Of a stretch of 64,000 nt of DNA, positions 33,091 through 44,372 are shown piece after piece. The stretch spans positions 10,752 through 74,751 of the forward strand of contig JAHJHG010000006.1 in the NCBI GenBank assembly GCA_018823885.1. Reading direction: 5' to 3'. This stretch comes from Patescibacteria group bacterium (GTDB lineage: Bacteria; Patescibacteriota; Microgenomatia; UBA8517). A model generated the notes under the pieces. The model was not told the DNA's origin, made no database searches, and saw nothing but the letters and a program-made list of their open reading frames with translations. The position numbers and the translations under genes are program-made. The stretch's first letter is position 1, and the number at the start of each line of letters is the position of its first letter.

Positions 33091-33209
33091 GCCCAGCAAT
33101 GAACTATTTTCGCATAGAGTTGCCCCTATACTATCGTCGCCGCTGGTGTGTTTTACTTTCCTGTTCGGAATGGGAAGGAGTAGGACCACACCGCTAAAAT
33201 TACTAGGCT
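33091..33209 (-). rRNA. 5S ribosomal RNA
   Basis: The reverse complement reads GCCTAGTAATTTTAGCGGTGTGGTCCTACTCCTTCCCATTCCGAACAGGAAAGTAAAACACACCAGCGGCGACGATAGTATAGGGG...GCGAAAATAGTTCATTGCTGGGC. This matches the 5S consensus (CCGAAC...GAAAC, terminal helix I). Confidence 0.7.
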
Positions 33210-33289
33210 ATTTTTATGGTTAATAGATTTTCTCTATTAACCACATATGTTAATGTTTTTTGTTCTCTGAAAACTGAAGGGAATGGGTC

Positions 33290-36200
33290 GTTAAATTCAT
33301 CGACTGATTCGCGCAGGTAAGCTTAAAGTATTACTACTCTTCCACTGCCTGCCGATTAACCGGATGATCTCTCCGGAGTCTTCTTGTCAATGACAAATGA
33401 GTCCTCATCTCGGGGTGGGCTTCCCACTTATATGCTTTCAGCGGTTATCCCTTAGGAATGTAGCTACCCGGCGTTGCCGTAAACACGACAACCGGCACAC
33501 TAGGGATTCCCCCAACCTGGTCCTCTCGTACTGAGGTTAGCTCCCCTCAAGACTCAAACGTTTCCACCGGATAGAGTCCGAACTGTCTTACGACGTTCTG
33601 AACCCAGCTCACGTACCACTTTAATGGGCGAACAGACCAACCCTTGGGACCTTCTTCAGCCCCAGGATGTGATGAGCCGACATCGAGGTAGCGATCCGCG
33701 CCGTCGATATGGACTCTCGGGCGCGACTACTCTGTTATCCCCGGGGTAGCTTTTATCCGTTAAGCTCCGTCCGCAACCATAGCGGATCGGAGGATCACTA
33801 AGACCTACTTTCGTACCTGTTTGGCCCGTCGGCCTCACAGTCAAGCTGGCTTAAACCTTTATGCTTTCACTACGATTTCCATCCGTAGCAAGCCAACCTT
33901 TGTACCCCTGCGTTACCTTTTAGCAGGGTACCGCCCCAGTAAAACTGCCCACCTAGCACGTTCCCTCAACCAGTATTCAAGGTTGTTAGGTAAGATTTAC
34001 CACATTTCAAAGAGAGGTGTTTCATCGACGAGCCGAAGCTCTCCCTCCTACTCTCAACAGTTAAAATGCATAAATCAATGCCAAGCTACAGTAAAGCTCC
34101 ACGGGGTCTTTTTGTCCTGGTGGAAATAGGCCGCGTCTTCACAGCCAACGCAATTTCGCCGGGGGAATTCTCAAGACAGTTGCTAGCTCGTTACGCCATT
34201 CGTGCACGTCGGAACTTACCCGACAAGGAACTTCGCTACCGTAGAACAGTTCACTTTTGTTACTTCCTTGATTAAATCAAGGTGGTGTGGATATTTCTAC
34301 CACACTCCCCATGTCTCCATGAGGGTCGGACTATATCATACCCAACTTAAATTGGATTTTGGCGTATAGTCTCTGGGGGTTCTTCCAATATGGAAGCCTT
34401 CCCTGCTGATTGTCCCTATTCATTGGTTTTTCAGGTATCAGTTAACTTGTTGCCAAATTAACGGCCTACCAATGACTTAATAGGATATTCCAGCATATAG
34501 CCAAATTTTACAACTACAATTGATTCATAGTTACTGCTGCCGTTTACCGGAGCTTCGGTTCAAAGCCTAATGTCCGAAGACAGAAGACCTATCCCTTTAA
34601 CTTACCAGCACTGGGCAGGCGTCAGCCCGTATACATCACCTTTCGGTTTCGCACGGACCTGTGTTTTTGATAAACAGTCGTCTAGCAAACGTTTGTCGCA
34701 ACCCACAATGAAGTGGGCATCCCATCTCCCGAAGTTACGGGAAGCTTGTTTGCCGAGTTCCTTAAGAATCCTTCTCCCGATCGCCTTAGTATTCTCTACC
34801 TGCCCACCTGTGTCGGTTTACGGTACGGCTTGATTTGAATCTCGTTGCGAGCCTTTTCTCGCAAGCTGAATAACTTGAAATTACCCTAATCTCTTAGTGC
34901 TTTGTATCATTGCTTGATTAATCATTAAAACGGATTTTCCAATTTCAACTATCTTACAATTTACACTTTCATTTGTCTGAAAGCTTCAAGCGTCCTGCTC
35001 AGTTAACCCCCAACTCAAACGATTCACTCCAAGTAGCAGAATTTTAACTGCTTGTCCATCGACTACGCCATTATGGCCTCGCCTTAGGAGCCGACTAACC
35101 CGTCGAGGACGAACCTTGCGACGGAAACCTTGGGCATTCGGCGGATGTGATTCTCACACATCTAGTGCGCTACTCATACCGGCATTCTCACTTCCATGTA
35201 CTCCACCCAACTTTCCAGTTGAGCTTCACTGCGCATGGAACGCTCCCCTACCACGTACATCTTACGATGCACATCTCTAGCTTCGGTACCTGACTTAATC
35301 CTCGATAAATTTTCGGCGCCCTCTTTCATCGACCAGTGAGCTGTTACGCTTTCTTTAAAGGATGGCTGCTTCTAAGCCAACCTCCTGGCTGTCTATGAAA
35401 AAAGACTTCCTTTCAAACTTAGTCAGAATTTAGAGACCTTAGCCGAGAGTCCGGGTTGTTTCCCTCTCGTCACACGAGCTTAGCCCCGTATGACTGTCTA
35501 GCCGCGATTTATGGGTTATTCGGAGTTTGGTTGAGTTATCTCACTTACGTTCGATAACCCATCCAGTAGCTCTACCACCCCATATTTTTACACGACCACG
35601 GTGCCTAAACACCTTTCGGGGAGAACCAGCTATCTCCAAGTTCGATTGGCATATTGCCGCTATCCACAAGTCATCCCAGCCTATTGCAACAGACACGGGT
35701 TCGGGCCTCCTTCTGATTTTCATCAGAGTTCACCCTGCTCATGGATAGATCACTTGGTTTCGGGTCTACCACCTAGTACCTATAATCGCCCTATTCGGAC
35801 TCGCTTTCGCTGTGCTTTCACCACTAAAGTGGCTTAAACAAGGTACTAAAGGAGGTAACTCGCCGGTTCATTCTTCAATAGGCACGAGATCACTCTAATA
35901 AATTAAAGCTCTCTCGGTTTGTCCGCAAACAGTTTCAGGTTCTATTTCACTGGGCGTTCCGCCCTTCTTTTCGCCTTTCCCTCACGGTACTAGTTCACTA
36001 TCGGTTCTTATCATATATTTAGCCTTGGAGGATGGCTCCCCCGGATTCCCACAGAGTATGTGCTCCGTGGTACTTGGGATACTCCTAGAGGTTAATTTGG
36101 TTTTACGTACAAGACTTTCACTTTCTTTGGTCAACTATTCCAAGTTGTTCCGCTACCTTATTAACTCCCACATTAGAGTCCCGCAACCCCAAAAAAATTC

Positions 36201-36511
36201 CGAAGAATCTTCTTGGTTTAGGCTTTTGCCATTTCGCTCGCCGCTACTGAGGCAATCTCAATTGATTTCTCTTCCTCGCCCTACTTAGATGTTTCAGTTC
36301 GGGCGGTTCCCTACTTTTTCGTGCATACAAACCGAAGTCTGCATGTTAAGAAAAAGCTGACTACAGATAAATGTAGCCGGGTTTCCCCATTCGGACACCG
36401 CCGGGTCATAGGATTGTGGCTCCTAACCGGCGATTATCGCTGCCATATGCGTCCTTCTTCGGTAGATAAGACCAAGGCATCCACTGTCTGCGTTAGTAGA
36501 ATTTTGCGACC
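33290..36511 (-). rRNA. 23S ribosomal RNA (about 3.2 kb; ends approximate)
   Basis: The reverse complement contains the 5' region ...CAGACAGTGGATGCCTTGG and the 3' region GGGATAACCGCTGAAAGCATATAAGTGGGAAGCCCACCCCGAGATGAG. Only short spurious ORFs lie inside. Confidence 0.85.
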
Positions 36512-36538
36512 TTTCCCTTCAGATGTCAAAGAACAAAG

Positions 36539-36613
36539 TGGACCTGACCGGGCTCGAACCGGTGACCTCTACATTGCAAATGTAGCGCTCTTGCCAGCTG
36601 AGCTACAGGCCCG
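36539..36613 (-). tRNA. tRNA-Ala (anticodon TGC)
   Basis: The reverse complement reads GGGCCTGTAGCTCAGCTGGCAAGAGCGCTACATTTGCAATGTAGAGGTCACCGGTTCGAGCCCGGTCAGGTCCA. It has a G3:U70 pair and the anticodon loop TTTGCAA. Confidence 0.85.
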
Positions 36614-42567: not shown

Positions 42568-42609
42568 GAGGTGTCACTCAACTATGTACAACCGAGTGGC
42601 ACCTCATTT
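42568..42609 (+). terminator. Hairpin terminator candidate after the 695-aa gene
   Basis: A 12-bp stem (GAGGTGTCACTC / GAGTGGCACCTC, one G.U pair) is followed by ATTTCC. Confidence 0.35.
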
Positions 42610-42753
42610 CCAAATTACGACAATTACATTCAAAATCAATACAACAAATTATATTTATCGCAAATATGAATATTTGTTTTTTGGTTTTACGGTATTATCT
42701 TGTTTCGCGTCTACTGAATATCAGTACTGAAGAGTCTTCCAAAAGGCAAGACG

Positions 42754-42790
42754 AAACGCAAAAACCCGCTTTAAAAAAGCGGGTTTCTTT
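42754..42790. terminator. Bidirectional rho-independent terminator (AAAAACCCGCTTTAAAAAAGCGGGTTTCTTTGTTTT)
   Basis: A perfect 8-bp GC-rich stem is flanked by an A-tract and a T-tract. It is located about 120 nt beyond the 16S 3' end on the minus strand and about 210 nt beyond the 695-aa gene on the plus strand. Confidence 0.6.
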
Positions 42791-42910
42791 GTTTTAACAA
42801 TCAAAATACGACTAGAAGCGGGTTCGGTTTTTTTACAGTTTAACCGTGACCTAAAAGCTGGGTGTATACCTACCCTCAGATAAATCTGAAAGCAGTCGTG
42901 ATACTCCTTA

Positions 42911-44372
42911 GAAAGGAGGTGATCCATCCGCTCCTTCCAGAACGGATACCTTGTTACGACTTAATTCTTGTCGCTGGTCTCACCTTCCCCCGATTCAATC
43001 GAGGTTCGGGTGCTTCCAACTTCACTAACTTGACGGGCGGTGTGTACAAGACCTGAGAACGTATTCACCGCGGCTTGGCTGATCCGCGATTACTACCAAT
43101 TCCACGTTCATGAGGGCGAATTGCAGCCCTCAATCCCCACTGAGAAGCCGTTTGATGGGATTAGCTCCGTGTTACCACTTGGCAACCCATTGTCGGCTCC
43201 ATTGTAGCATGTGTGTAGCCCTGGACATAAGGGCCATGCTGACTTAACGTCGTCCCCGCCTTCCTCCCGAGAATGACTCGGGCAGTCCCGTATGAATATT
43301 CAACATACGGCGAGGGTTGCGCTCGTTACCCCACTGAAGGGAACACCTCACGACACGAGCTGACGATAGCCATGCAGCACCTGTTCTAGTACCTTCGAAA
43401 GAGTCACCATTTCTGGTGATGTGCAACTAGTATGTCAAGTCCAGGTAAGGTTCTTCGGTTCGTCTCGAATTAAACCACATGCTCCACTGGTTGTGCAGGT
43501 CCCCGTCAATTCCTTTGAGTTTTAGTCTTGCGACCGTACTCCCCAGGCGGCTCGCTTAACGCGTTAGCTTGCGAGACGGAAAAATAAATTCCCCATCCCT
43601 AGCGAGCATCGTTTACGGCTAGGACTACAGCGGTCTCTAATCGCTTTCGCTACCCTAGCTTTCGTTCCTCAGCGTCAAGAAATGCCTAGTTACCCGCCTT
43701 CGCCCTTGGTGTTCTTGTCGATATCAACGGATTTCACCCCTACACCGACAATTCCAGTAACCCCGACATTCTTCAATTCTGGTAGTATTATGCCCCTTCC
43801 CGAGGTTAAGCCCCGGTCTTTGAAACATAACTTACCAAAAAGCCTACGAACTCTTTACGCCCAATAAATCCGGACAACGCTTGCACCCTACGTATTACCG
43901 CAGCTGCTGGCACGTAGTTAGCGGGTGCTTATTCTCCAGTCGGTCTCCCTTCTGGCAAAAGAGGTTTACAACCCTAAGGCCTTCATCCCTCACGCGGCGT
44001 CGCGGCGTCAGACTTTCGTCCATTGCGCACGATTCCCGGTTGCTGCCACCCGTAGGTGTAAGGCCCGTGTCTCAGTGCCTTTCTGGGGGAACACGCTCTC
44101 ACGCCCCCTACCCGTCGTAGCCTTGGTAGGCTATTACCCTACCAACAAGCTGATGGGCCGCAGGCTCCTCCCTCGGCGGGCAGTTACGCCCTTTCATCCT
44201 TGGATCTTATGCGGTATTAACTACTCTTTCGAGTAGGTATTCCACACCAAGGGGTAGATTCCTACGTGTTACTCAGCCGTTCGCGACTTACTATCCGAAG
44301 ATAGCTCGTTCCACTTGCATGCCTAAGGCACGCCGCCAGCGTTCGTCCTGGGCCAGGATCAAACCCTCAAAT
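42911..44372 (-). rRNA. 16S ribosomal RNA
   Basis: The 3' end reads ...GGATCACCTCCTTTC (complement at 42911-42924) and the 5' end reads GAGGGTTTGATCCTGGCCCAGGACGAACGCTGGCGGCGTGCC. The internal conserved blocks (GTGCCAGCAGCTGCGGTAATAC, etc.) are present. Confidence 0.9.

Follow-up and report, generated by a model that had tools for sequence, protein, structure and literature searches.

A probably ancestral split of the rRNA locus in a Patescibacteria genome: the 16S rRNA gene is separated from tRNA-Ile, tRNA-Ala, 23S and 5S by opposite-strand genes

Introduction

The rRNA genes of CPR genomes are mostly unlinked, and one category of these genomes has 16S-23S distances of more than 2 kb with opposite-strand genes lying in between (PMC8172020). 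Patescibacteria have likewise been described as forming a cluster in which all rRNA genes are unlinked (bioRxiv 10.1101/705046). In circular Microgenomatia genomes the 16S-23S distances are 2,872, 8,467 and 8,985 bp (PMC8172020). Two other elements of the present locus also have described counterparts. Position 1917 of 23S rRNA is a recurrent intron site in CPR (PMC11270868), and 5,713 homologs of T4CP were reported in 2,918 Patescibacteria genomes, where they mostly lie away from virB4 and may be exapted (PMC12102498). Opposite-strand genes between unlinked rRNA genes are already documented for CPR, and the locus described here is a well-resolved case of this known kind.

Results and Discussion

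Organization of the locus

The rRNA and tRNA genes were located with Rfam covariance models at the gathering threshold, the tRNAs also with ARAGORN. All of them lie on the minus strand of the window (the whole 64-kb stretch of DNA that was analysed). They are 16S rRNA (42912-44374, 1,463 nt; RF00177, 1404.8 bits, model positions 1-1533), tRNA-Ile(GAT) (36825-36898; 36826-36898 by Rfam), tRNA-Ala(TGC) (36538-36612; 36539-36612 by Rfam), 23S rRNA (33287-36508, 3,222 nt including an intron; RF02541, 2426.8 bits, model positions 1-2925) and 5S rRNA (33091-33207; RF00001, 78.8 bits). The latter is the last gene of the tRNA-Ala/23S/5S unit; it is immediately followed by a T7 run, and the promoter-like TTGAAT-17-TATAAT of the S1 gene lies downstream.

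The 3' end of the 16S gene is 6,013 nt away from tRNA-Ile and 6,403 nt away from the 23S gene. The first gap is occupied by three plus-strand ORFs of 739 aa (36991-39210), 201 aa (39481-40086) and 695 aa (40456-42543). The covariance-model placement confirms that the 16S gene is truly split by these three genes from tRNA-Ile/tRNA-Ala/23S/5S, i.e. that the canonical order 16S-Ile-Ala-23S-5S is broken between 16S and tRNA-Ile. Such a break had been described in an earlier note on this DNA, the coordinates of which agree with the Rfam, ARAGORN and ORF calls to within 2 nt.

The ATPase gene and conservation of the split

The product of the gene next to tRNA-Ile (36991-39210, plus strand) is a VirD4/TrwB-like P-loop ATPase of 739 aa. 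It carries DUF8128 at the N-terminus as well as TrwB_AAD_bind (46.7 bits, cut-off 20.5) and TraG-D_C (30.3 bits, cut-off 22), and DUF87 matches it with 31.6 bits; no transmembrane helix is predicted in it. Composition of the gene (GC 0.395, GC3 0.330) is typical of the genome, the values for the 36 ORFs of the window being 0.403±0.039 and 0.357±0.051. Homologs of the protein number 7,475, and the best 120 of them are all at least 67% identical to it with unchanged domain architecture. The gene is a conserved Patescibacteria gene.

The ATPase gene was found between tRNA-Ile and 16S in ~20 independent relatives with 16S identity down to 78-79%. This position is held in every examined relative of at least 62% protein identity with enough flank, except L141, and also in several relatives with 52-57% ATPase identity. 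L141 (70% identity, partial ATPase gene) has no 16S within 10 kb downstream, and this could be due to a very large cargo or to a secondary rearrangement. The conserved order is Sortase-RadA-S1-5S-23S-Ala-Ile, then the VirD4-like gene on the plus strand, 0-9 kb of variable genes and the 16S gene on the minus strand. It is seen in L090, L091, L093, L096/97, L098/99, L100/101 and L102/103, as well as in L108-L112, L114, L116 and L117, and partly in L119, L128, L155, L159 and L010. L100/101 are named Woesebacteria.

The length of the spacer varies among lineages from 0.1 to >9 kb. In seven relatives (L112, L116, L117, L119, L128, L159 and L010) the ATPase gene is followed by 16S within ~100-300 nt, which means that this gene alone is the core of the spacer. 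Identity of the ATPase drops along with that of 16S (92/97, 88/97, 71/88-89, 69/85, 62/83 and 53-56/78-79%), as vertical descent would give. Loci of homologs with ~50% identity or less have no rRNA or tRNA-Ile within 10 kb, and L115, L118, L164 and L166 (53-57% identity) are likewise devoid of them nearby. The split therefore marks one clade, and the presence of the ATPase gene in the spacer of ~20 relatives shows it to be ancestral to this Microgenomatia/Woesebacteria-like clade. The clade does not coincide with all named Woesebacteria, since one genome classified there is listed as operonic, with 1,660 bp that hold two tRNAs and homing endonucleases (PMC8172020, S1 Table).

Most probably (we put the probability at about 0.85), the locus is the native rRNA locus of a Microgenomatia/Woesebacteria-like CPR genome, the single one within the 64 kb seen, in an ancestrally unlinked configuration. 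Long ago, the space between 16S and tRNA-Ile would have received, in opposite-strand orientation, the gene of a soluble VirD4/TrwB-like ATPase, and the split arrangement would then have been passed on vertically. The identities and positions of the genes, the conserved arrangement and signals and the exchange of genes in the variable slot were observed directly; how the original rearrangement came about is inferred, like the true transcription starts and stops, the processing and the splicing.

It is conceivable, although unlikely, that a conjugative or mobilisable element integrated beside tRNA-Ile in the ancestor of the clade, the VirD4-like gene being its domesticated remnant and the variable genes occupying its former cargo region. 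Conjugative elements typically have T4CP-type domains, the ATPase gene does adjoin a tRNA gene, the neighbouring slot is still turning over with accessory secreted proteins, and an SLT transglycosylase gene and an HTH_17 gene are situated just past 16S. But every class of Patescibacteria has members of the DUF8128 plus TrwB family elsewhere on the chromosome, with no element genes beside them, so the family predates the split and is not specific to elements. Besides, the gene adjoins the 5' end of tRNA-Ile, whereas integrases usually target the 3' end, and none of the lineages examined showed an integrase, a relaxase or att repeats.

Two putative transcription units

Promoters and terminators were assigned as consensus matches. 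The 16S gene is preceded by a promoter-like TTGACC-N16-(TG)TATAAT (44551-44578, minus strand) that matches the consensus at 11/12 positions and has an equivalent in 8/14 lineages (regular-expression search). It is followed by a terminator-like leader hairpin CCGTCC-ATCT-GGGCGG with T6 (44474-44495, minus), an equivalent of which is present in 12/14 lineages. Next comes the 5' strand of a 16S processing stem (44426-44454, minus) with a boxA-like CTTTGACAATC. It forms 28 consecutive pairs with the 3' strand at 42792-42820 (minus); the stem is kept in relatives, and its energy is -52 kcal/mol vs -32.7±4.2 for shuffles.

Downstream of 16S, the earlier note had placed a terminator ~120 nt after the gene, and a perfect palindromic hairpin AAACCCGCTTT-AAA-AAAGCGGGTTT with T-runs on each strand (42762-42786, both strands) was indeed found 125 nt beyond the 3' end. 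This predicted bidirectional intrinsic terminator would close the 16S unit as well as the cassette genes that converge on it. A hairpin with a T-run stands at the equivalent place in 9/14 lineages by strict scan and in 12/14 by eye, its stem sequences varying among lineages yet staying complementary. Neither way of inspecting the 14 lineages revealed a clear terminator after 16S in L117 and L108.

The second set of signals starts between tRNA-Ile and tRNA-Ala, with a promoter-like TTGACT-N17-TATAAT (36775-36803, minus; 11/12 consensus positions), so that tRNA-Ile lies upstream of it and tRNA-Ala opens the 23S unit. The pattern TTGAC[N]-17/18-TA[T/G]AAT is found by regular expression at the same place in 14/15 lineages, and the 15th, L117, has TTGACA-17-TATACT (by eye). 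Between this promoter and tRNA-Ala lies a terminator-like leader hairpin AACCGGCTTCAAGGCCGGTT with a T-run (36641-36664, minus), which is kept in the 15 lineages with compensatory changes in the stem. The 23S gene has a processing stem as well, and its 5' strand (36511-36537, minus) contains TGTTCTTTGACA, which we take to be boxA-like by comparison with the Bacillus/E. coli boxA consensus. It pairs with the 3' strand in the 23S-5S spacer (33257-33286, minus) with an RNAduplex energy of -40.6 kcal/mol vs -12.5±2.9 for shuffles. As tRNA-Ile is on the opposite strand in five lineages, tRNA-Ala/23S cannot rely on a promoter upstream of tRNA-Ile. The promoter scan, taken as a whole, gave 15 sites with 14.0 expected from shuffles, i.e. 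no enrichment; it is by their position and conservation that the signals are supported.

These signals suggest two units. The first would be the 16S gene by itself, equipped with a promoter, a leader hairpin, a boxA-like element, an RNase III-type processing stem and an intrinsic terminator of its own; the second would comprise tRNA-Ala-23S-5S, with its own consensus promoter, a leader architecture like that of the 16S unit and its own processing stem. The tRNA-Ile gene would be left orphaned. Quite improbably, the locus may still act as one operon, in which the polymerase, starting at the 16S promoter, would cross 6 kb of coding sequence in antisense before it reached tRNA-Ile-tRNA-Ala-23S-5S, the internal signals being incidental. 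The rRNA and tRNA genes do share one strand and the canonical order, two lineages have no obvious 16S terminator, and rRNA antitermination complexes are able to read through terminators. Such a transcript would nevertheless have to pass a strong intrinsic terminator, which in most lineages comes right after the 16S processing stem and has stems that covary, and would meet 2-9 kb of opposite-strand genes head-on; the spacer also ranges in length as given above, and a near-consensus promoter stands ahead of tRNA-Ala across the clade. Opposite-strand spacer geometry was treated as not co-transcribable in the survey of unlinked rRNA genes (PMC8172020).

The variable cassette

Only ~3.5 kb of the locus (roughly 39.2-42.7 kb) differs between close relatives. 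Nucleotide homology to the two closest ones, L090 and L091, ends at the stop codon of the VirD4-like gene and returns ~170-220 nt beyond the stop of the 695-aa gene (blastn break points at window positions 39190/39129 and 42709/42760), which sets the approximate limits of the cassette at 39195-42705 (plus strand). Both relatives hold unrelated secreted-protein genes in this interval.

Here the interval contains two plus-strand genes of predicted secreted Cys-rich proteins, one of 201 aa (39481-40086; 11/201 Cys, 5.5%) and one of 695 aa (40456-42543; 25/695 Cys). Their N-termini are strongly hydrophobic and signal-peptide-bearing (KD19 2.7 and 3.0), and a C-terminal segment of 100 aa is common to the two proteins, at 35% identity (E = 4e-8). 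The earlier note had named these two genes, as well as the VirD4-like one, correctly. The 201-aa protein has a 42%-identical homolog in the same slot of L096/L097. Only 15 homologs of the 695-aa protein were found, at unrelated loci elsewhere (a patchy distribution); its residues ~117-190 form a module that also occurs in cell-wall-anchored surface proteins. Each gene has its own paralogous promoter/leader region, with promoter-like sites at 39256-39283 and 40190-40217 and leaders that agree at ~70% of the positions in their first ~130 nt. On this strand, the ATPase gene is followed by a variable slot filled with different secreted-protein genes in different lineages. It is occupied here by a tandem pair of genes whose Cys-rich products, secreted or located at the surface, are in part paralogous, and this pair is probably the only recently exchanged part.

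The GC-richness noted earlier at 39.3-42.6 kb is real: none of the other 36 ORFs counted in the window is as rich in GC or GC3 as the two cassette genes, which are themselves among the 36 (GC 0.48/0.51, GC3 0.47/0.51). As an argument for acquisition it is weak, because the homologs of the 695-aa gene, wherever present, are richer in GC than their own hosts. This richness, the opposite-strand orientation of the ~5.9-kb block and the T4SS-type ATPase domain encoded in it are nevertheless what might be expected if the whole block were a recent, strain-specific, horizontally acquired island in an intact spacer, as the earlier note had read it. That reading is very improbable, and for the ATPase gene it is refuted by the relatives that carry the gene at the same position. 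The gene also has genome-typical composition here. Integrase, relaxase and transposase domains were looked for and none was detected, no direct repeats flank the block, and the independent promoter of the 23S unit is kept throughout the clade. The earlier interpretation is therefore partly supported: relatives share the split and the ATPase gene, an outcome that the note itself had named as one that would speak for an ancestral state and against an insertion, and differ in the two secreted-protein genes, and horizontally acquired cargo is a tenable description of the ~39.2-42.7 kb slot only. That unrelated genes were joined in by a chimeric assembly at the conserved rRNA sequence has hardly any probability left. 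Metagenome assemblies do often break or mis-join at rRNA genes, and many contigs bearing ATPase homologs are short, but in this organism the structure was found again in six independent assemblies, produced by different assemblers (MEGAHIT k141 contigs, NCBI MAGs, Logan unitigs); a single 7.6-kb Logan contig extends from the 5' end of 23S into the 3' half of 16S, and ~20 other lineages have the identical gene order.

Group I intron in the 23S gene

The 23S gene contains an ORF-less group I intron of 275 nt (34252-34526, minus strand; RF00028, 65.8 bits with a gathering score of 50, E = 1e-15). The Rfam Intron_gpI match itself spans 34307-34536(-), and the exact limits were taken from alignment against the intron-less 23S of L091. 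The intron (GAATC...AAGTG) follows the U1917-equivalent within the helix-69 loop, with the exon sequence GTAACTAT before it and AACTGTTC after it, and presumably must be spliced out of the 23S rRNA. Comparison of the 23S genes showed no intron at this site in L091, L093, L096/97, L098 and L102. It explains why the gene had appeared ~300 nt too long: its 3,222 nt differ from the 2,946 nt of a 97-98% identical relative by a single 275-nt block.

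Organization of the rRNA locus

The 16S (42912-44374), 23S (33287-36508) and 5S (33091-33207) genes were located on the minus strand by Rfam covariance models at the gathering threshold, and no further rRNA genes were detected by these models within the 64-kb window. The genes of tRNA-Ala(TGC) (36538-36612) and tRNA-Ile(GAT) (36825-36898), assigned by ARAGORN and Rfam, are found on the same strand. The stretch of 6,013 nt between the 3' end of 16S and tRNA-Ile is occupied by three ORFs on the plus strand, i.e. all opposite to the rRNA: the gene of a 739-aa VirD4/TrwB-like ATPase (36991-39210) and the genes of two Cys-rich proteins of 201 aa (39481-40086) and 695 aa (40456-42543). 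Pfam domains support one of these ORFs, and homologs were found for each of the others. The earlier note had described 16S as set apart from tRNA-Ile/tRNA-Ala/23S/5S by three antisense genes; this observation is confirmed in every particular, the coordinates of the three coding sequences being an exact match and the map of the rRNA ends being upheld by the covariance models.

The 16S-23S gap of 6,403 nt (42912 to 36508) exceeds both published cut-offs for unlinked rRNA genes, >1,500 bp (bioRxiv 10.1101/705046, Brewer et al.) and >2,000 bp (PMC8172020, Lui et al.). Transcription of both the 16S and the 23S parts from a single promoter is not plausible because of the three opposite-strand genes in between. 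A chimeric assembly join is ruled out, since the identical structure recurs in six assemblies made independently for this organism (Patescibacteria MAG, GCA_018816285.1, contig JAHIWH010000012.1).

Age of the split

The rRNA and tRNA genes were mapped around ATPase homologs sampled at graded identities (loci designated by L and a number). The order Sortase-RadA-S1-5S-23S-tRNA-Ala-tRNA-Ile, ATPase gene (plus strand), 0-9 kb of other genes, 16S (minus strand) is present, with one exception, at all loci that have an ATPase identity of 62% or more and a sufficiently long flank. These are the two closest relatives (L090 and L091, 97% identical in 16S), L093, L096/97, L098/99, the named Woesebacteria L100/101, L102/103, L108-L112 and L114; the partial loci L155 and L159 are consistent with this order. 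The exception is L141 (70% ATPase identity, partial gene), where 16S was not found within 10 kb downstream. The same order is seen at 52-57% ATPase identity in L116, L117, L119, L128 and L010. In seven loci (L112, L116, L117, L119, L128, L159 and L010) only 100-300 nt separate the ATPase gene from 16S, so that the ATPase gene alone represents the minimal spacer. The identities of ATPase and 16S drop together (92/97, 88/97, 71/88-89, 69/85, 62/83 and 53-56/78-79%), which is the pattern of vertical descent. At loci of ATPase homologs of ~50% identity or less neither rRNA nor tRNA-Ile/Ala genes occur within 10 kb, and the same is true for L115, L118, L164 and L166 (53-57% ATPase identity).

The split is a derived trait that unites a deep Microgenomatia clade, named Woesebacteria genomes included. 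The earlier note considered the whole ~5.9-kb block as horizontally acquired cargo that had landed between 16S and tRNA-Ile. As a recent insertion of the whole block this explanation fails: relatives share both the split and the ATPase gene, which occupies the same site across the clade (L141 apart) and is of normal composition, its GC (0.395) and GC3 (0.330) lying at the window mean (z = -0.2 and -0.5, respectively). Presence and absence in close relatives agree with an island at 39.2-42.7 kb and not at the ATPase gene. The acquisition idea therefore holds for ~3.5 kb only, on comparative and not on compositional evidence, and the earlier interpretation is partly supported. The unlinked state of the rRNA locus is ancestral and common to the clade; the locus also carries a locally variable secreted-protein cassette and an rRNA intron of a known type.

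The surroundings of the ATPase homolog were inspected in 80 genome and 80 metagenome loci for rRNA, tRNA-Ile/Ala and the genes flanking the locus in the window; in lineages of ~50% identity or less none of these was found within 10 kb, RadA being the exception. RadA, two positions beyond 5S in the clade of the window, and the ATPase gene are convergent in L038 (RadA 6020-7276, minus strand) and L164 (1559-3037, minus strand), two outgroups having no rRNA association, which may hint at the gene order of the ancestor.

Probable transcription signals of the 16S and 23S units

The 16S gene is preceded by a promoter-like sequence TTGACC-N16-TATAAT with an upstream TG (44578-44551, minus strand), which matches the consensus. 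It is followed on the same strand by the leader box CACATGATGTAAGAC, by a terminator-like hairpin with T6 (44495-44474) and by a boxA-like element CTTTGACAATC, which opens a predicted 28-bp stem enclosing 16S (44454-44426 with 42820-42792, -52 kcal/mol). Past 16S, a perfectly palindromic hairpin with a T-run on each strand (42786-42762) lies 125 nt beyond the 3' end; this probable intrinsic terminator bears out the bidirectional terminator that had been proposed ~120 nt after 16S. The elements of the 16S unit recur in relatives. The terminator stems vary in sequence yet stay complementary (CCCGC/GCGGG, CCACC/GGTGG, CCCAC/GTGGG, CCCCTGG/CCGGGGG, CCGCG/CGCGG), and the terminator is present in 9 of 14 lineages by a strict automated scan and in 12 of 14 by eye.

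The 23S unit has a consensus-like promoter of its own, TTGACT-N17-TATAAT (36803-36775, minus strand), situated between tRNA-Ile and tRNA-Ala, so tRNA-Ile sits upstream of this promoter and tRNA-Ala inside the unit. A near-consensus promoter occupies this position in 14 of 15 lineages by regular expression, the 15th having TTGACA-N17-TATACT. Downstream of it on the minus strand follow the conserved box TTACTTTATGAGAAGC, a hairpin with a T-run (36664-36641) and, after tRNA-Ala, the boxA-like element TGTTCTTTGACA, at which the putative processing stem of 23S begins, its other strand being in the 23S-5S spacer (-40.6 vs -12.5+/-2.9 kcal/mol in shuffles). The unit continues with 23S, 5S and a T7 run.

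All these promoters and terminators are consensus matches, and the overall promoter scan was not enriched over shuffles; the case for them is made by their position together with phylogenetic conservation. The terminator at 42762-42786 and the promoter at 36775-36803 thus appear to be independent signals for each part, conserved across the clade, and the 16S unit and the tRNA-Ala/23S/5S unit would be transcribed separately, each from its own signals.

In both rRNA leaders an intrinsic-terminator-like hairpin with a U-run (44474-44495 and 36641-36664, minus strand) stands between the promoter and the boxA-like element. The leader hairpins are kept clade-wide with compensatory changes in the stems (equivalents in L090-L117, L010 and L128). 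A role as attenuator, pause site or boxB analogue is conceivable. An Rfam E-value scan of the spacer gave sub-threshold matches only (RsaF and BSnc120 over the terminator, Plastid-ycf2 antisense to tRNA-Ile), all of which were rejected as chance or tRNA mimicry.

tRNA-Ile is found on the opposite strand, that of the ATPase gene, in five lineages: L096/97 (9878-9954), L098/99 (L098 9192-9266), L100/101 (L100 9879-9952), L102/103 (L102 9882-9956) and L108 (1564-1637), in each case on the plus strand. In most of them it lies 44-48 nt ahead of the ATPase start codon, and further away in the others. The inversion belongs to one sub-clade, and tRNA-Ala stays on the rRNA strand. Inversion of tRNA-Ile in five lineages shows that tRNA-Ala/23S/5S is independent of anything upstream of tRNA-Ile.

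The ATPase gene

The 739-aa product contains TrwB_AAD_bind, DUF87 and TraG-D_C domains, all above the Pfam cut-offs (PF10412, 46.7 bits with a cut-off of 20.5; PF12696, 30.3 bits with a cut-off of 22), and DUF8128 as the N-terminal domain. It shares with type IV coupling proteins (VirD4/TraG/TrwB) the P-loop TrwB_AAD_bind/TraG-D_C domains and the Walker motifs (Walker A GKTGTGKST, Walker B-like LYVDEFQ), and a weak direct match to TrwB structures (PDB 1E9R) was obtained (E = 8e-8). In contrast to these proteins, it has DUF8128 instead of an N-terminal membrane anchor (the maximal 19-residue Kyte-Doolittle mean is 1.06 and lies outside the N-terminal region) and lacks a neighbouring relaxase or VirB4: neither was found among the scanned ORFs of the window or near the ATPase gene at the loci of relatives. 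All NCBIfam models of type IV coupling proteins stayed far under their cut-offs (36 bits with cut-offs of 250-650).

By protein search the ATPase has 7,475 homologs. In the top 120 the identity is always 67% or higher and the four-domain architecture is shared, and most of them are labelled Patescibacteria, Woesebacteria or Microgenomates. According to a species-level genome scan the ATPase occurs across Patescibacteria, including Microgenomates, Saccharibacteria, Dojkabacteria, Uhrbacteria, Peregrinibacteria and Berkelbacteria. A survey of VirD4-type coupling-protein homologs in Patescibacteria counted 5,713 of them in 2,918 genomes, just 148 being near virB4, and its authors suggest exaptation of the family (PMC12102498).

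This Patescibacteria-specific gene is also present in many public MAGs titled Gammaproteobacteria, Nevskiaceae, Pseudomonadales, Bdellovibrionales, Chlamydiae and Thermodesulfobacteriota (loci L010, L014-L016, L018, L021 and others; protein record P0006). Such records are likely mislabelled or contaminated bins.

The variable secreted-protein slot

Nucleotide homology to the two nearest relatives (L090 and L091) stops at ~39130-39190, at the stop codon of the ATPase gene, and returns at ~42709-42760, 170-220 nt beyond the stop codon of the 695-aa gene. The slot between these points codes for proteins of 248 and 326 aa in L090 and of 311 and 715 aa in L091, none of which has detectable similarity to the 201-/695-aa pair. 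The 715-aa protein of L091 is Cys-rich and was tried as a diverged orthologue of the 695-aa protein; it was rejected with the best E = 0.12 and no nucleotide homology across the slot. As neither protein nor nucleotide similarity is seen, the contents of the slot are treated as apparently replaced rather than diverged, extreme divergence being formally possible.

In all lineages the slot is filled mostly by signal-peptide proteins. The N-termini of the 201-aa and 695-aa products resemble signal peptides; both proteins are rich in Cys (5.5% and 3.6%, respectively) and have a common C-terminal segment (E = 4e-8), and neither matched a Pfam or NCBIfam family. A 42%-identical homolog of the 201-aa protein occupies the same slot in the more distant L096/97. 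Just 15 homologs of the 695-aa protein turned up among 5.8 billion sequences, and those whose loci were traced are at unrelated sites. Residues ~117-190 of the 695-aa protein form a Cys/His/Gly-rich module of ~75 aa (CHATGSW...GHxGxGHQSGxDIIPP...GQNW...GQAI..NGCE) covered by no Pfam family; three copies of it are found in a Leucobacter DUF11 surface protein, and it also occurs in a Saccharimonadales LPXTG protein. The module being common with these surface proteins is in keeping with a surface or secreted role of the 695-aa protein.

Both cassette genes are preceded by paralogous promoter-like sites and by leaders of ~200-240 nt (39240-39480 and 40175-40455) which share GTTCTTTAAYAAC; this sequence is restricted to the organism's own contigs among 187 loci, and the leaders matched no Rfam family. 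The paralogy of these regions suggests that the cassette genes arose or arrived as a tandem pair.

The region 39.3-42.6 kb is indeed GC-richer, as noted earlier: GC and GC3 of both secreted-protein genes are the highest in the window (z = +2.0 to +3.1). Homologs of the 695-aa gene elsewhere are equally GC-rich against backgrounds of 35-36% GC, so that this bias accompanies the family in all its hosts, and in most relatives the GC content of the slot exceeds that of the ATPase gene. The composition is therefore a property of the gene class and weak evidence of foreign origin; GC content as a proof of horizontal transfer was downgraded. The spacer and the sequence directly next to it gave no match to a Pfam or NCBIfam domain of an integrase, transposase or relaxase, and the cassette is flanked by no att-like direct repeats, only by short imperfect matches of 14-34 nt at the level of chance.

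A second, smaller variable slot lies between tRNA-Ile and the start of the ATPase gene. It comprises 92 nt in the window (36899-36990) and 0.7-2.4 kb with extra ORFs in relatives (L090 4045-5270; L093 7568-10000; L098, L110 and L112).

The group I intron in 23S

The 23S gene is 3,222 nt long compared to 2,946 nt in L091, the two being 97-98% identical. Alignment to L091 reduces the difference to one clean block of 275 nt: ...GTAACTAT / GAATCAATTG...AACAAAAGTG / AACTGTTC... The block scores 65.8 bits with Rfam Intron_gpI (RF00028, gathering score 50), follows a U, ends in G (...AAGTG) and contains no ORF. The suggestion that 23S is ~300 nt overlong is thereby explained: the excess is a group I intron of a known type, with predicted splicing. 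The point of insertion we take to be after U1917, by reference to helix 69 of E. coli (G1910-Psi-A-A-C-Psi-A-Psi1917-A-A-C). The intron is absent from this site in L091, L093, L096/97, L098 and L102.

Known 1917 group I introns have the same features: position after the U1917 equivalent in the helix-69 loop, preceding U, terminal G, an Intron_gpI match above the gathering score and sporadic occurrence among close relatives. Position 1917 is among the recurrent group I intron sites in 23S genes of CPR bacteria (CPR site '23IS6'; PMC11270868), and an intron at this site is known from Coxiella burnetii (Cbu.L1917; Raghavan et al. 2007, cited in PMC11270868). Unlike the CPR introns at 1917, among which it is reported as common (PMC11270868), the present one has no LAGLIDADG_1 homing endonuclease.

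The 1917 site of L090 (L090 1-1700, 3' part of 23S) carries an insertion of ~1 kb with two intron-like copies and a repeated 15-nt exon fragment between them; either a tandem duplication or an artefact of assembly could explain it. Insertions encoding LAGLIDADG proteins are found in 23S away from 1917 in L098 (4184-8738) and L100 (5973-9525), and 16S is enlarged by 0.4-1.8 kb in L010 (2601-4954), L111 (5894-9007), L159 (1456-4731) and L110 (14888-16741). Such insertions are typical of the rRNA intron load of CPR.

Comparison with known unlinked rRNA systems

In symbionts and pathogens with reduced genomes and unlinked rRNA genes each part is under its own promoter. The present organism resembles them in the apparently single rRNA copy, the small genome and the split between 16S and 23S. 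It differs in the distance, 6.4 kb as compared with usually tens to hundreds of kb, and in that the site is ancestral, the flanking synteny is kept and the tRNA pair itself is divided. Unlinked 16S and 23S-5S genes are listed for Buchnera, Wolbachia, Rickettsia, Borrelia, Helicobacter and Mycoplasma in PMC8172020 and bioRxiv 10.1101/705046.

A like arrangement is known from CPR bacteria, where separation of 16S from 23S-5S by >2 kb with other-strand genes in between is clade-specific. Lui et al. [quoted passage not shown] According to Brewer et al. (ISME J 2020; bioRxiv 10.1101/705046) Patescibacteria stand out as a cluster in which the rRNA genes are exclusively unlinked. S1 Table of PMC8172020 includes Microgenomatia genomes with 16S-23S distances of 2,872, 8,467 and 8,985 bp, which fit spacers with the ATPase gene only (~2.8 kb, L116) and with the ATPase gene plus cargo. 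As far as their accessible text goes, these surveys provide status and distance and not the identities of intervening genes. Beyond them and the survey of type IV secretion, a literature search for this arrangement yielded no description of the identity of the spacer gene or its deep-clade conservation, nor of the signal rewiring, the invertible tRNA-Ile or the adjacent fast-turnover slot.

Arrangements of this kind, introns at this site and the stray ATPase have all been published before, and the current understanding is not overturned, as unlinked rRNA, rRNA introns and stray coupling-protein homologs are documented in Patescibacteria. As far as could be found by our search, the new features are the conserved occupant (a coupling-protein-like ATPase), the orphaned invertible tRNA-Ile, the internal set of promoters and terminators, and the variable slot. 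The locus is a clean natural case of split-operon rewiring, with a duplicated promoter/leader architecture, a strand-flipping orphan tRNA-Ile and an added 16S terminator, and its slot exchanges secreted-protein genes between genomes 97% identical in 16S. Since a conserved protein gene bridges 16S and 23S, short contigs of the type "23S end - ATPase - 16S end" are genuine, and the ATPase gene can be used to tie rRNA genes to MAGs, which usually lose them. Methods that expect a contiguous operon (operon-length amplicons, ITS typing) fail in this clade or yield products of 3-12 kb.

It seems rather improbable that the ATPase gene and its slot are kept between the two rRNA units, the most strongly transcribed ones of the genome, for a function, whether the site is a hotspot of surface proteins, insulated or recombinogenic, or the leader hairpins act as a coordinating attenuator. 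If it were so, divergent and convergent rRNA transcription, with the supercoiling and the bidirectional terminators that go with it, could shield host-interaction genes or drive their expression; with recombination promoted, the slot would be a dedicated diversification hotspot for the surface repertoire of an episymbiont; and the leader hairpins would constitute a previously undescribed attenuation switch coordinating the separated 16S and 23S units.

Neighbouring variable genes

Upstream of the 16S unit, on the minus strand, a small HTH_17 gene (~45100-45290), the gene of an SLT lytic transglycosylase (45326-45943) and that of a 785-aa KAP/AAA_16 P-loop NTPase (46254-48611, low GC of 0.342) are located. 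The position of the NTPase gene is another variable spot: it is taken by an HNH-like ORF in L090, and the gene is missing in L102. The third GC/GC3-richest ORF of the window (0.475/0.465) codes for a 272-aa protein of no family (27625-28443, minus strand). It is neighboured by a 983-aa ORF and a sortase gene, and its product may be another accessory surface protein.
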